Source: a virus (taxonomy: Duplodnaviria > Caudoviricetes). Taken from it: DNA of 64,000 bases. Both the position numbers and the translations under genes were made by a program. Where the stretch lies: the IMG/VR virus record IMGVR_UViG_3300014205_000200, positions 25,162 to 89,161 of that record. The stretch is one strand, 5' to 3'. Of this stretch, positions 11,800 to 46,681 are shown piece by piece; within the stretch, counting starts at the first letter, position 1; every line of letters begins with the position of its first letter. The notes under the pieces were generated by a model. It was given only the letters and a program-made list of their open reading frames with translations, searched no databases and was not told where the DNA came from.

Positions 11800-11967
11800 A
11801 TGGAACGGACAGTTGAGCAGATCAGGTTGGAGCTGGAGGAAGCGGCCCTCCGGCACGCGATGGGTGGTGGGTCGGCAGACCTGGACCGCCTGGCGCGCGA
11901 GCTACTGACGCGGGTTCAGCAGGACGCCACGGGCGACCTGGTGTTCGAGGCCTTGGAGGCGGCGTGA
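11800..11967 (+). CDS. 55-aa hypothetical protein (not in ORF track)
   Basis: GGAGGAGG SD; stop overlaps the GTG of the next gene. Confidence 0.55.
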   Translation: MERTVEQIRLELEEAALRHAMGGGSADLDRLARELLTRVQQDATGDLVFEALEAA

Positions 11968-12857
11968 CGGCAGTCTTGAACGTGAACGATCTCGATACCG
12001 AGCGGCTCCGGGATCTCCGGCGGTCGCTCGGTATCGGGCTCAAGATGGGCCGACTCCGGATGACGACCAGCCACACGGCCTTCACCGAAGCGGTCGTGGC
12101 TGATGAGAAGGGTCGGCCGATCCGATCCGCCAGCATCCACCGGATCTGGGACGCTCACTTTGAAGCCTGCCGGGCGGCCGGGCTCTACTGCGCGATCGTC
12201 GCCCCCTTCGGCCACGGCAAGACGGTGCGGAACATCGTCAGCCGGGCCAGTTACGAGATCGGGCGGGACGTGAACCAACGGATTAAGCTCGTCAGCTCGG
12301 TCGACAACAACGCCAAGCACCGCGTGATGGCGGTCAGCAGCATCCTCAAGAAGGCGGCCTACCGTCGCCTTTACCCGCACGTGCGCGAGATGACGGCCAA
12401 GGAGGCGCGGACCAGCGGCGCCCCGAAGGAGTGGACGCAGCACAGCATCTACCTGAAGCGACCCGGCTTCTCGATCGACCCGACCCTCCAGGCGTTCGGC
12501 GTCCTCGGCTCGGGCGTCGGTGCCCGGTGCGACGGCTACTTCTTCGACGACGTGGTGGACTTCCGGAACACGCTCGAGAAGCCGGCCCTTCGGGAGAAGG
12601 TGATCGACGCGATCGACAACGTCTGGCTGTCGCGACTCGAGCCCTGGGGGTGGGTGATGTACGTCGGGACGCCCTGGCACGAGTCGGACGCGACCCACTG
12701 GATCCTGAAGCAGAAGGGCTGGTCGATCCTGTGGCAGAACATCAAATCCGACTTCAGCTGCATCGAGCAGAAGGTCTACAACCCTCCGCCCAACTACCCG
12801 ATCCCGGCCTACAGCCGGGTCGTTGGCGACTCGATCAAGAGCGAGCGTTGGGTCTGA
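11964..12857 (+). CDS. terL: terminase large subunit, N-terminal ATPase domain only
   Basis: Walker A APFGHGKT, Walker B GARCDGYFFDDVVD, coupling region VGTPWHESD; stops before any nuclease domain. Confidence 0.85.
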   Translation: MTAVLNVNDLDTERLRDLRRSLGIGLKMGRLRMTTSHTAFTEAVVADEKGRPIRSASIHRIWDAHFEACRAAGLYCAIVAPFGHGKTVRNIVSRASYEIGRDVNQRIKLVSSVDNNAKHRVMAVSSILKKAAYRRLYPHVREMTAKEARTSGAPKEWTQHSIYLKRPGFSIDPTLQAFGVLGSGVGARCDGYFFDDVVDFRNTLEKPALREKVIDAIDNVWLSRLEPWGWVMYVGTPWHESDATHWILKQKGWSILWQNIKSDFSCIEQKVYNPPPNYPIPAYSRVVGDSIKSERWV

Positions 12858-15494: not shown

Positions 15495-16063
15495 TGGAGC
15501 CGCTCGACCGGCTGAAGGACATGATCTCCCGAGTGGGCTTCAGGGACCTGGTGTTGAGCGAGGGAAAGAAGGCGCATCAGGGTGTCCGGTTCTCAACCGA
15601 CGACGACGGGCCGGGGATCGTGGTCTCGGCGGCGGGAACTCGTTCCGTCGGTGGTGAGATCCCGGAAGGGATCTGCGTCGTCGACGTGGACTACGCTCTC
15701 TTTTGGCCCGAGCAGTGGGGCCTGCTGTCGGCCCGCAAGCTCGAGACGCTGACGGTCCAGAGCCCTCACGGGATTCATCTCTACTACCAGCTCCCCGAGC
15801 CGGCGAAGCGCATGTTCCCCTACCGGGTCGTCGATCTGATGAACAGCCGGCTCGTGATGGGGACCGGGGGTGTGGTGCAGTCGGGCGGTGGCCCGACGAA
15901 GCGGTCGGTCGACTTCCTGGGGGTGGGGTGGATCGTCATTCCGCCATCGCCCGGCTACATCCTCGTCAACCCGAGCCCGATCGCCCGGCTACCGCTCCCG
16001 ATCGCCCGGTCGGTGTTGGGGGCCTTCTGGGACGATCGGGGAGCGTCGATGTGGTGGCGGTGA
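15491..16063 (+). CDS. stand-alone Prim-Pol (bifunctional primase/polymerase N-terminal) domain protein
   Basis: CVVDVD, TVQSPHGIHLYY, VDFLGVGWIVIPPSPGY, IARLP. Confidence 0.7.
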   Translation: MMEPLDRLKDMISRVGFRDLVLSEGKKAHQGVRFSTDDDGPGIVVSAAGTRSVGGEIPEGICVVDVDYALFWPEQWGLLSARKLETLTVQSPHGIHLYYQLPEPAKRMFPYRVVDLMNSRLVMGTGGVVQSGGGPTKRSVDFLGVGWIVIPPSPGYILVNPSPIARLPLPIARSVLGAFWDDRGASMWWR

Positions 16064-16377
16064 CGGCCTTCCGGATCGTCGCCCTGGCGGCCATCTTCAG
16101 CTACGCTCTGTGGGCGTTGCTGAGGTGATGGTTGCCGTCGATACGATCCACCCCGACCTGTCGCCGCCTTCGCCGTCGTCGCATCCGGACGATGGAGAAG
16201 GACCCCTGGTCGGGCGTCTACCAGCCGGGCGACTGGCGGTGGACGACCGAGCGATGTGGCGCCATGGTGGACGAAGCCGGACAGGAGTGCCCGGCCTGCG
16301 CGGTCGGCCTTCAGACGGACGATGACCAACTGATCCCCGAGATCGACCCGACCGGGTAGCGGGGGGAAGATGGTCCC

Positions 16378-28782: not shown

Positions 28783-29334
28783 GTGGACGTCGTCAACAAC
28801 GACCGGGTGTCGCTCTCGAGCCCCCAGGTGGTCGAGTTGGAGATCCTGGTCGCGTCCGACGCGCCTTTCACCTACCAGGTCACGCTGCCGACGCCGGTCA
28901 ACGGCGGCTCCCGAACGTTCTCGGTCGAGACCGGCGCCGATCCGCTGACGACCGACGAGGTGGCGGCCCTGTTGGAGACGGTTCTGTTCAACGAGCAGAC
29001 CCCCTACGCGGTCTCGCGCGCGGGCCCGGTCATCGTCTTGGTCGGTCCGCTCGGCTTCACCTTCGAGGCGCAGCCGGGCGATCGGCTGGAGGCCCGGGTG
29101 GTGTCGGTTGGCTATAGCGGCCAGGACCTGTCGACCGGCCGGCAGATCGGGACCTGCAAGGTGATCGAGTGCCGGAACCTGTCGACCGGTCGGATGCGGC
29201 AATACTACACGCGCGACCGCGACGGAGTGGTGCTCTATCGGTGGGACGTCCTTCTCCAAGAGGAGAACACGTCCAACTATTTCGAGGTTCAGGCGGACCA
29301 GATCCTGACCCTAATCGAGAGCGCTCCCTTCTGA
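28783..29334 (+). CDS. hypothetical beta-rich protein, possibly virion-associated
   Basis: composition resembles the structural genes. Confidence 0.55.
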   Translation: MDVVNNDRVSLSSPQVVELEILVASDAPFTYQVTLPTPVNGGSRTFSVETGADPLTTDEVAALLETVLFNEQTPYAVSRAGPVIVLVGPLGFTFEAQPGDRLEARVVSVGYSGQDLSTGRQIGTCKVIECRNLSTGRMRQYYTRDRDGVVLYRWDVLLQEENTSNYFEVQADQILTLIESAPF

Positions 29335-39488: not shown

Positions 39489-39547
39489 GGACTTGAAACC
39501 GGCGCCTTCGTGGCTGTAGCCTCGCGCCGAGGAGAAGGGACAGTTAA

Positions 39548-40924
39548 ATGGAAGGCTCTATCGGCGCAAACTTTGTAGTGGGGTTCAACTCCTCGGTCGT
39601 TTCGGCGATCCAGGACCGCACCCTGGCGCGCGTGTTCCGCGACGCTCTCTTCCCCCGGATCTTGTTCCGGGCCGAAGCGGACCCCGAGATGTGGCCCGCC
39701 AACCTCGGTACCAACCAGACCTTCAGCCGGTCCGGGACCATGCGGCCCTCGACCCGGCCGTTGGAGGCGAACCAGGATCCGACTCCTCTGACCTACGGGA
39801 TCGAGCAGTGGGAGGCGACGGCGGCCCAGTACGGTGGTTCGATCGACACCCACATGCCGACCAGCTACGTGACGATCGCGTCGCTGTACCTCCGGAACAT
39901 GCATCAGCTGGGCCTTCACTCGGCCCAGTCGGTCAACCGGGTGGTCCGAGACCGGCTGTTCAACGCCTACCTGGCGGGCAACACGGTCGTGAGCGCGAAC
40001 GTGGGCGGTGGCGTCAGCGTTCCGGTGGTGAGCCTCTCTGGCTTCACCCGGAAGCAGCTGAACGGCCGGCCGGCTTTCGTGAGCCCGACCAACCCGTTGC
40101 CGATCCTGATCACCACCGGTGGTGTGACGACCGCGTTCAACGTCGTCGGCTTCACCTCGACGTTCCCGAACGACGAGATCCACAGCGGCATCTTGACGCT
40201 CGACGTGGCGCACGCCGGTCTGACGGCGCGCGACATCGTCCGGGCGGTCAACCGGTCGCGGGTCATTCGGTCGGGTGGTGGTGAGTCGGTCGACGCCATC
40301 AGCTCCGGTGATCAGTTCACCGTGGCGAACGTCCGGGCGGCGATCGCTCAGCTCCGTCGGAACAACGTCCCGACGCACGAGGACGGCACGATCCACTGCC
40401 ATCTGGATCCGGATTCGATGAACCAGATCTTCAACGACAACGAGTTCCAGCGGTTGAACCAATCGCTGCCCGACTACATCCACTATCGTGAGATGGCGCT
40501 CGGGACCTTCGGTGGTGTGACGTTCTACCGGAACACCGAGTCGCCGGTGGTGGCGACGGTCGACCAGGATCCGCAGTTTGGCTTCACCTTCGCGGGTGAG
40601 CTGACCAACGCTTCCGGGGTCGAGATCCATCGCCCGATCTTCACCGGCGGCGGTGCGATCGAGGAGAAGTACCTCGACGAGTCGAAGTACATCAGCGAGG
40701 CCGGAATCAACGGTAAGATCGGCGAGTTCGCGGTGGTCAACAACGGCATCCAGGTGATGGCGGAGCGCATCCGTCTCATCCTCCGGGCGCCGCAGGACCG
40801 CCTCCAGCAGCAGACTTCTGCCAGCTGGTCGCACTCGGGCGACTGGCCGGTTCCGACCGACTCGCTCAACACCACGAGCCCCGCCGACTACAAGCGGGCC
40901 GTCGTGGTCGAGCACGGCATCTAA
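39548..40924 (+). CDS. major capsid protein (HK97 fold, resembles N4 gp56-type)
   Basis: 458 aa after the scaffold, strongly biased codons, E-loop-like TFSRSG...QYGGSI. Confidence 0.8.
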   Translation: MEGSIGANFVVGFNSSVVSAIQDRTLARVFRDALFPRILFRAEADPEMWPANLGTNQTFSRSGTMRPSTRPLEANQDPTPLTYGIEQWEATAAQYGGSIDTHMPTSYVTIASLYLRNMHQLGLHSAQSVNRVVRDRLFNAYLAGNTVVSANVGGGVSVPVVSLSGFTRKQLNGRPAFVSPTNPLPILITTGGVTTAFNVVGFTSTFPNDEIHSGILTLDVAHAGLTARDIVRAVNRSRVIRSGGGESVDAISSGDQFTVANVRAAIAQLRRNNVPTHEDGTIHCHLDPDSMNQIFNDNEFQRLNQSLPDYIHYREMALGTFGGVTFYRNTESPVVATVDQDPQFGFTFAGELTNASGVEIHRPIFTGGGAIEEKYLDESKYISEAGINGKIGEFAVVNNGIQVMAERIRLILRAPQDRLQQQTSASWSHSGDWPVPTDSLNTTSPADYKRAVVVEHGI

Positions 40925-41165
40925 GTTCCGGGCCCTTAAGTGGGTCTGGTTTGGGACTTCGGTCCCGCTCCTGGGTTCGCCCAGGTCGGAGCTTCGGCTC
41001 CACCCCTCGGCCGAAAGGCTGAGGACCCGCAGGGCACCCGAGCTGCCCGGGGGTTGATCTTCGACAGGGGGCTCACGCTCCCGCGCCAACGGCGAGGCCT
41101 TGTCGCCGGTTCTTTAGAAGGTCTAGACCCAGCAGCTCGAGTGCCCGGCACTCTTCCCTTTTCGG
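40925..41165 (+). ncRNA. candidate structured ncRNA or structured 3' element
   Basis: three UUCG hairpins, one GAAA hairpin and a 15-bp long-range stem in an intergenic region lacking any + strand gene-like ORF. Confidence 0.6.
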
Positions 41166-41190
41166 CGCTTCTCGTCCTAGAGTTGGCGCC

Positions 41191-41631
41191 ATGAGCACCA
41201 GAAAACTCCGAGAAACCCAGTCCCCTTCAGCGGTCGAGGTCGCGATGGAGGGGGTCGAATTCGCGCTCCCGATCGACGCGAGGCCGGCTCCCGCGCGAGA
41301 AGACGAAGGGTCGGACGTCTCGGATGAGGACCCGTACCAAAAGCAGCGCGACCAAGACGCGGAGCGGAACGCACTCAACCAGCGGGCCGCGAAGGAGTCG
41401 AATCGGATCGAGGCGTCGCTCTACCGACGAGCGACCCCGCCGAAGTTGCCCGAGTTGCCGGAGGCGAAGGCGGCTGAGATCCGGGCGGCTCGTTACCGCG
41501 TCACCGGATCGGTGGCGCCGATTTCGATCGACGGCCAGCGGATCTCTTTCCGGGTCGGAAAGGAGCTAGACTCCAACCAGTTCGACGTCGAGTATCTGAA
41601 GCGGCACGGCGTAAAGCTGGAAGCCATCTAA
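41191..41631 (+). CDS. hypothetical head-associated protein
   Basis: TAGAGT-N7-ATG. Confidence 0.6.
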   Translation: MSTRKLRETQSPSAVEVAMEGVEFALPIDARPAPAREDEGSDVSDEDPYQKQRDQDAERNALNQRAAKESNRIEASLYRRATPPKLPELPEAKAAEIRAARYRVTGSVAPISIDGQRISFRVGKELDSNQFDVEYLKRHGVKLEAI

Positions 41632-41640
41632 GGGGGCAAG

Positions 41641-42066
41641 ATGCCGTTCACCGAGCAGGACCGGAGCCGAATCTACTACCACCTCGGCTATCCGGACATC
41701 ACGTCCGCCTCGTCGGTCCAGCTCGGCTTCCCGGCGTTGAGTCAACCCCAGTTCCTGGTCAGCTACGCGATGGACCGGCTCAACCCGGCCTCGGTTCCAC
41801 GTGCGATTCGGATCCTCAACATCCTGGACGGTGTGGAGGGTCAGATGGTGTCGGCGCTGAAGCGACTTCAGGCCCAGCAGTTGGGCGAGCTGAAGCTCCG
41901 CAACACCAACGAGGAGAGCACCGAGCAGGACTTGTTGGAGCGTGAGTACAGCCGGTGGGCCCAGCGGCTCGCCGACATCTTGGGCGTGCCGATCAATCCC
42001 TACGCGACCCGCTATGGCGCGCTCGAGGGCGGCGGTGCGATCAACACGCCGGTGGTGAACAGCTGA
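41641..42066 (+). CDS. head-tail adaptor/connector
   Basis: helical 141 aa, IYYHLGYP; position after MCP. Confidence 0.55.
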   Translation: MPFTEQDRSRIYYHLGYPDITSASSVQLGFPALSQPQFLVSYAMDRLNPASVPRAIRILNILDGVEGQMVSALKRLQAQQLGELKLRNTNEESTEQDLLEREYSRWAQRLADILGVPINPYATRYGALEGGGAINTPVVNS

Positions 42067-46621: not shown

Positions 46622-46681
46622 CCCCGTGACCGAGCCGGCTTCGGCCGGCCCTCTGGCGGAACGACCGAGGAGGAGTACCCG

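Follow-up and report, generated by a model that had tools for sequence, protein, structure and literature searches.

The stretch of DNA analysed here, referred to below as the window, comprises 64,000 nucleotides of an IMG/VR virus record that is 89 kb long, has a G+C content of 67% and an estimated completeness of 78%. Three of its genes frame the locus under study:

39548-40924, + strand: major capsid protein gene, 458 aa, matching phrog_1357 (major head protein) with E 2e-13
41191-41631, + strand: next gene after the element described below, 146 aa, poorly conserved
41641-42066: conserved 141-aa gene, after the 146-aa gene

The best protein-level match of the capsid protein among isolates is the annotated major capsid protein of Streptomyces phage Kromp (35% identity), and at least 974 capsid homologues are found in metagenomes, on contigs of 80-100 kb. 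A DNA search of the isolate phage collection gave no match to the window phage, a search of one-per-species genomes gave no prophage relatives, and a metagenome scan with a single protein gained only five further loci. The capsid gene is preceded by a scaffolding-like gene. Since the genes farther 3′ of it include one of neck type, one with a weak tail-sheath match and a small one in the tube position, the window phage is probably an uncultured myovirus. The 59-nt gap 5′ of the capsid gene (39489-39547) contains a 5-bp GGCGC/GCGCC stem as well as TTGAAA-N18-TAGCCT, a weak promoter candidate that fails a consensus scan.

Between the capsid gene and the next gene there is a gap of 266 nt (40925-41190). 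It holds a folded element of about 230-260 nt, which in relatives reaches about 340-415 nt, and whose first hairpin begins just 3 nt past the capsid stop codon. Its architecture includes a row of short hairpins, a large branched domain (domain 2) with a long closing stem P1, and a pyrimidine-rich tail:

40928-40935/40942-49, + strand: hairpin H0, 8 bp including two G.U pairs, loop UUAAGU, from the fold
40952-40967, + strand: hairpin H1, C(UUCG)G, from the fold
40970-40985, + strand: hairpin H2, 6 bp with an invariant stem; UUCG loop in the window, 6-nt loop in relatives
40988-41001, + strand: hairpin H3, C(UUCG)G, from the fold; helix 3, with one G-C to C-G double change
41005-41024, + strand: hairpin H4, 8 bp, GAAA loop (GCAA in relatives); one double and two single changes
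41029-41149, + strand: branched domain 2, closing stem P1 41029-46/41132-49, 16 pairs
41049-62/41117-30, + strand: inner stem of domain 2, from the fold
41067-82 and 41090-41108, + strand: apical hairpins A and B of domain 2, from the fold
41085-41108, + strand: candidate H-type pseudoknot; the hairpin B loop opens with GGC (41096-98), which would pair with GCC (41085-87)
41090-95/41103-08, + strand: stem of hairpin B
41150-41163, + strand: pyrimidine-rich tail after P1, with UUUU at 41159-62
41164-41190, + strand: last small hairpin, from the fold, ending at the ATG of the next gene

Several of these helices had been picked out in an earlier note on this DNA, and they reappear in the sequence as well as in both the minimum free energy (MFE) and centroid folds: the three TTCG hairpins (GGGAC-TTCG-GTCCC, 40953-40966; CCTGGG-TTCG-CCCAGG, 40970-40985; GGAGC-TTCG-GCTCC, 40988-41001), the GAAA hairpin CCTCGGCC-GAAA-GGCTGAGG (41005-41024), the long stem 41032-41046/41132-41146 with its one mismatch, and the GGCGA/TCGCC hairpin (41091-41107). 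H0 was absent from that note, which proposed instead that GGGTC and GACCC could close the short hairpins into a multiway junction. Such a closure is possible but not supported, and it competes with H0, a longer helix (8 bp) that covaries and is 100% paired in relatives.

On the + strand, the 266-nt gap folds with an energy of -140.8 kcal/mol, compared with -117.3 +/- 5.5 for 200 dinucleotide shuffles, none of which does as well (z -4.25; the minus strand gives z -3.2). After GC correction, the region ranks about 9th of 1780 genome windows, eight other 150-nt windows being better. Stability by itself is not exceptional, and it is the comparative evidence that counts. Three of the six strongest + strand TTCG-loop hairpins of the 64-kb window are packed into a 50-nt part of the element. 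The two most stable + strand regions genome-wide after GC correction, 15960-16240 (z -4.2) and 11900-12180 (z -3.1), have no tetraloop arrays and overlap long ORFs.

The nearest relatives of the window phage are the Logan contigs L064 and L065/L066, whose capsids are 83-84% identical and whose spacers can still be aligned with that of the window. Covariation, which the earlier note had put forward as a check, was examined on an RNAalifold structure of three sequences (window, L064 and L065), in which only two independent lineages are compared. The outcome agrees with the fold: among 67 pairs, 96.5% of cells are paired and 16 pairs are doubly changed, as against 5.7 +/- 2.0 in shuffles (0 of 500 reaching 16) and 0-6 in slid controls. 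H0, which is helix 1 of this structure, shows one double and two single compensating changes and is 100% paired in all three sequences. In domain 2, helix 5 has 16 pairs with three double changes, and helix 6, the inner stem, has eight of its 11 pairs doubly changed, so that its sequence is wholly different and yet paired in both lineages. The two nearest relatives lack H1, a cleanly bounded insertion of 15-16 nt in the window. Two further, independent sub-clades, L010/L014/L015 and L011/L012/L019, contribute 20 and 18 doubly changed pairs, respectively, figures which, like those above, come from small alignments of related sequences. Compared with 4-fold degenerate sites in the neighbouring capsid gene, the spacer is also the more conserved in eight of nine pairs (for example, 0.85 vs 0.57).

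Several observations bear on the strand. The three clusters contain 18-28 G.U cells each, pairs that would become C.A mismatches on the opposite strand, and the consensus energy favours the + strand in all three. Across 30 loci with a capsid identity of at least 57%, the 350 nt after the capsid stop codon hold 25 TTCG-loop hairpins in 10.3 kb, or 2.43 per kb. The flanks hold 0.09 per kb, which makes a 27-fold enrichment, and the minus strand of the same post-capsid stretches holds none. Because the TTCG hairpins occur on the + strand only, with the G.U cells and the consensus energy pointing the same way, the RNA would be made in the direction of the capsid gene. And because in relatives pairs are kept and double changes exceed expectation, it is a conserved RNA and not a chance fold. 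Judged by these comparisons, the element is a real, conserved and strand-specific structured RNA, whose structure is under selection.

How far does this RNA extend among related phages? The spacers of L010/L014/L015 and of L011/L012/L019 cannot be aligned with that of the window, although they can be aligned inside each group. The plan is nevertheless shared: several short hairpins, many of them C(UUCG)G and varying freely in number among relatives, are followed by a branched domain of 100-130 nt, a closing stem of 14-20 bp and a U/C-rich tail, which reads CTACTTTTCC in L010/L014/L015 and T8-9 in the L011/L012 group. Among 20 loci folded over 6 kb (capsid identity at least 57%), the most stable 150-nt window is the post-capsid one in nine. 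The window, L064 and L065 served to train a covariance model, R1, which is weak with only three sequences behind it. With default filters it matched only these three. Run unfiltered, it gave its three best foreign matches on the terminal domain, in L071 (E about 0.001), L003 and L068 (E 0.02-0.03), and these sit just upstream of the next gene; an alignment of its matches that had taken in minus-strand ones was set aside. By inspection, the same domain 2 core is seen in L004, L067, L069, L005 and L020. The window copy has the family's features, namely a + strand site between the capsid gene and the next structural gene, and a terminal domain closed by 14-20 bp. On the strength of these matches, domain 2 is a member of an RNA family that is in no RNA catalogue (Rfam). 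Elsewhere in the window, R1 gives a weak + strand match at 29071-29145 (21.9 bits, E 0.037 in a 477-kb search) which is probably due to chance.

Within the core of domain 2, the loop of hairpin B starts with GGG and the hairpin is preceded by CCC-YAC. The short helix which these can form is CCC/GGG in ten sampled loci, representing nine lineages as L064 and L065 are near-identical, GCC/GGC in the window, CGC/GCG in L010/14/15, and UCGC/GCGA in L011/12/19. The arrangement is found at the homologous place in 11 lineages, and the sequence of the hairpin B stem differs in almost every one of them. Its geometry is ordinary, with a helix of 3-4 bp, a first loop of 2-3 nt and an A/U-rich third loop of 2-7 nt. 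In the alignment, 97% of the cells of this helix are paired and there are two double changes, a number reached by five of 500 shuffles. Among the unpaired columns of the three-sequence alignment there were no conserved pseudoknot helices of at least 4 bp, and the 3-bp helix surfaced only in the wider comparison. A generic descriptor made of a long stem, a pseudoknot and a pyrimidine tail is unspecific, with 0.87 hits per kb post-capsid compared with 1.07 elsewhere, and by itself lends no statistical weight. An H-type pseudoknot in domain 2 is probable, its support being moderate because the helix is short and the generic motif is common by chance in GC-rich DNA.

The element does not correspond to any catalogued RNA among those searched. 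An Rfam search of 40500-41600, a check named in the earlier note, gave no match inside the element at E up to 10. At gathering scores the whole window had no match either, including to tRNA, ribozymes, riboswitches, Mu-gpT-DE, ROOL, GOLLD and YrlA, and Rfam 15 found only true tRNAs in 11 related loci at E up to 1. Nor does ARAGORN report any tRNA for the window, which together with the Rfam result agrees with the remark in the earlier note that no tRNA or ribozyme could be recognised; the tRNA-Asn of relatives is a separate insertion downstream of the element. Other candidates were considered and rejected. A bacterial Y RNA (YrlA)/Ro module was discarded, as there is no TROVE match in the 89-kb record and no Rfam match to YrlA. 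An 84-codon ORF overlaps the region, and was rejected as a gene since its GC3 is 0.62 compared with 0.89 for the capsid gene and 0.80 for the other neighbour; in relatives, indels of 1 nt and 16 nt also interrupt its frame, and nothing is conserved at the protein level. Riboswitch-like switching was rejected in turn, the competing hairpin at 41139-53 and its T-rich tail not being conserved in L064.

The 3′ end of the element does have some features of a terminator. A G+C-rich stem near the end is present in the form of P1, although it encloses about 85 nt of branched RNA and not a small loop. In the window, UUUU starts 10 nt past P1, after a UC-rich run. In relatives the U tract lies closer, with U4 at +3 to +5 (L064, L003 and L010/14/15) or U8-9 at +1 (L011/12), and U4 to U9 after the closing stem are also found in L005 and L020; L067 has no U run there. 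An AC-(Y)-UUU(U)-C motif after P1 is conserved in relatives. The statement that no U-tract follows the hairpins thus holds for the short ones but not for the large domain, behind which the window has the pyrimidine-rich tail with its UUUU (41159-62) and relatives have U4 to U9. In more distant phages (capsid identity 62-63% and below), the slot after the capsid gene is occupied by classical terminators, namely a 10-bp GAAA hairpin followed by TTTCT (L018:1399-1422) and a 17-bp hairpin between A and T runs (L021:3873-3910). The earlier note had judged the element too elaborate for a terminator; it is indeed more elaborate than a plain one, but the argument is weakened by the long stem with its U/C-rich tail, by the U8-9 sub-clade and by these plain terminators of relatives. 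The terminators of the phage could not be delimited by a generic hairpin scan, which gave too much noise across the window. At 46634-46649, a perfect GCCGGC-TTCG-GCCGGC hairpin lies 13 nt past the stop codon of a 149-aa gene, and a strong Shine-Dalgarno sequence for the next gene follows. This 149-aa gene comes right after the weak tail-sheath match and is likely the tail tube gene.

Insertions cluster at a hotspot behind the capsid gene. After the capsid gene but ahead of an intact element, relatives carry an HNH endonuclease gene (L068:4355-4774), a 145-aa ORF (L069:3960-4397) or a minus-strand HTH/sigma-region-4-like gene (L071:1549-2247). On the other side, a tRNA-Asn (GTT) is found 4-5 nt after the closing stem in two relatives (L064:2467-2542, L065:4597-4673). 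Because no insertion interrupts it, the element behaves as a unit and, because inserted genes lie between the two in L068, L069 and L071, it is not tied to the capsid gene itself. The downstream tRNA also implies that polymerase must read through the element in L064 and L065, so that termination there cannot be efficient, and a 3′ end of the form “stem + UUUU” would result from RNase P cleavage just as from termination. In L069, a tRNA lies two genes further on from the element (L069:5321-5395).

In most lineages, a Shine-Dalgarno sequence and an ATG are found within 10-25 nt of the tail. The next gene of the window (41191) has no Shine-Dalgarno sequence. The last small hairpin after the tail contains TCTAGAGT (41176-83), a block that is invariant in the window, L064, L065 and L066 and stops 7 nt short of the ATG at 41191. 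The block is possibly the -10 element (TAGAGT, 41178-83) of a leaderless late promoter, or else a palindromic protein site; CTAGAGT occurs four times in the window, against 1.6 expected.

What, then, might such an element do? Its structure is conserved, strand-specific and selected, its position is fixed, and other relatives have plain terminators in the same slot; termination, stabilisation and the promoter are what we infer from there. The reading that we favour, while rating it evenly poised between right and wrong, is an elaborated 3′-end module of the capsid transcript, acting as a partial terminator and an exonuclease barrier. The “mRNA-stabilising domain”, one of several options in the earlier note, now ranks first, whereas the assembly, packaging, sponge and decoy roles that it also listed gain no support. 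The capsid gene and the spacer would be part of one transcript, since the 3 nt between the stop codon and the first hairpin leave no room for a promoter, and the spacer would be its structured 3′ end. With their C(UUCG)G and GNRA caps, the very stable hairpins would join the pseudoknotted domain in blocking 3′-to-5′ exonucleases, while the long closing stem and its U/C-rich tail might serve as a partial factor-independent terminator or a 3′-end-forming site. As a result, the capsid message would be abundant and long-lived, and the downstream head-completion genes would be transcribed less. In the window phage, these genes may restart at the putative leaderless promoter (TAGAGT, 7 nt before the ATG). 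The 3′-end module is favoured because the + strand structure is under selection and its sequence more conserved than 4-fold degenerate sites, because distant relatives carry a terminator in the same slot, because U4 to U9 follow the closing stem, and because the likely tail-tube gene is also trailed by a C(UUCG)G hairpin (46634-49). Against it, the 10 nt between the stem and the UUUU of the window exceed what a canonical intrinsic terminator allows, L067 is without a U run, termination would be leaky in L064 and L065, and the inserted genes of L068, L069 and L071 untie the element from the capsid gene. Moreover, neither a terminator nor an exonuclease block needs a conserved, pseudoknotted and branched domain, which points to a specific fold and perhaps to a specific partner.

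That last objection is where a released RNA comes in. Here the element would be a discrete, stable ncRNA, cut or left from the capsid transcript, whose pseudoknotted domain would work in trans, perhaps on a phage or host protein that it binds, with the UUCG hairpins as inert stabilising struts only. Such a molecule would account for a branched-domain fold that is conserved across lineages with unalignable sequences, for the four complementary versions of the pseudoknot helix, for a unit never interrupted by the flanking HNH, ORF, HTH or tRNA insertions, and for a sequence more conserved than synonymous sites; ROOL and GOLLD offer a precedent for phage RNAs beside tRNAs (PMC5737381). We nevertheless regard it as a minority possibility. 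It has no promoter of its own, with 3 nt separating the stop codon from the first hairpin, it has no linked partner gene, the number of hairpins varies freely, and plain terminators fill the slot in other relatives. The broader proposal, that these would be an undescribed family of trans-acting pseudoknotted RNAs released from capsid transcripts and working through a specific three-dimensional fold, for instance on a protein late in infection, the slot being their general home in many uncultured phages, is put forward just as tentatively.

The element may also look forward, as a leader or regulatory element setting the transcription or translation of the downstream head-completion genes. Variants would be a Rho/RNase J insulator, RNase III-like processing of the 27-bp interrupted stem, and a standby or occlusion site for the start codon. 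It stays directly upstream of the next structural gene despite the insertions in L068, L069 and L071, a Shine-Dalgarno sequence and ATG follow the tail by 10-25 nt in most lineages, and the last hairpin of the window ends at the ATG. However, a tRNA separates element and gene in L064 and L065, where processing would cut them apart; the downstream gene is poorly conserved; and there are no conserved alternative structures, the small terminator-like hairpin at 41139-53 being absent from L064. A leader is improbable on this balance. Even less credible, to the point where we give it hardly any weight, is that the region folds by chance owing to its GC content, serves at the DNA level (origin, packaging site or cruciform) or hides an unrecognised small protein gene. 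High-GC DNA does readily fold in silico, the genome has eight other 150-nt windows that are better after GC correction, the pseudoknot-plus-stem descriptor is no commoner post-capsid than elsewhere (0.87 vs 1.07 per kb), and the 84-codon ORF does overlap the region. Yet the compensating changes, the G.U pairs and the strict strand bias of the UUCG hairpins argue for RNA, and the ORF is contradicted by its GC3 (0.62 vs 0.89/0.80), by the frame-breaking indels and by the lack of a conserved peptide.

It is customary to write off structured RNA behind a capsid gene as “the terminator”. In this case an entire clade of uncultured soil phages, 85-100 kb in size, maintains an element of 230-340 nt in that place, and its fold and small pseudoknot outlast complete sequence turnover. 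Weinberg et al. reportedly described in 2017 an RNA motif, Mu-gpT-DE (in Rfam), as a conserved structure downstream of the major head subunit gene. This motif resembles the element in being an RNA structure downstream of a major head gene, but its capsid family and architecture differ, and Rfam gave no match to it in the window or the 11 related loci. On either of the two leading readings, the element is a concrete object with defined ends, defined helices and obvious compensatory mutants.

If the element is a released RNA, it would be a new family among the few large phage RNAs of unknown function. ROOL and GOLLD are large and ornate RNAs of phages and prophages, without a known function and often beside tRNA genes (PMC5737381; PMC12286853). 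Like them, the element is phage-borne and elaborately folded, and in L064 and L065 it stands beside a tRNA. Contrary to the element, which lies in the 3′ region of an mRNA and has no Rfam match, ROOL and GOLLD are 2 to 3 times larger, are independent genes and form RNA-only multimers. Small RNAs of the MicL type, derived from 3′-UTRs, share the terminator of their mRNA (bioRxiv 10.1101/341578), and a released element would similarly be a stable structured RNA freed from the 3′ end of an abundant mRNA. It is however far more complex in size and fold, and no seed region, target or chaperone link is known for it.

If the element is only a 3′-end module, it would be an unusually elaborate natural design for an abundant and long-lived message, with a potential practical use in expression in high-GC hosts. 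In T7 (T-phi) and LUZ100, the capsid gene is directly followed by a strong terminator (PMC10134795), and among the relatives L018 and L021 have just such a simple stem-plus-U hairpin. The position after the most highly expressed late gene is the same, and so is the presumed purpose, which is to set the ratio of capsid to downstream expression. Unlike these terminators, the element is 230-340 nt long, branched and pseudoknotted, its U run in the window is 10 nt off the stem, and it must be read through in L064 and L065. The hairpins themselves have a counterpart: in PMC8948821, citing Tuerk 1988, CUUCGG hairpins are described as common in phage intergenic regions, especially in T4, and are linked to the stability and processing of transcripts. 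The T4 hairpins and those of the element are alike in their short C(UUCG)G stems, in belonging to intergenic phage RNA and in lying on the transcribed strand (PMC8948821). Compared with T4, the element is a dense array, with three UUCG hairpins and one GNRA hairpin in 75 nt; it is coupled to a pseudoknotted domain that is conserved, and throughout a phage clade it keeps to one genomic slot.
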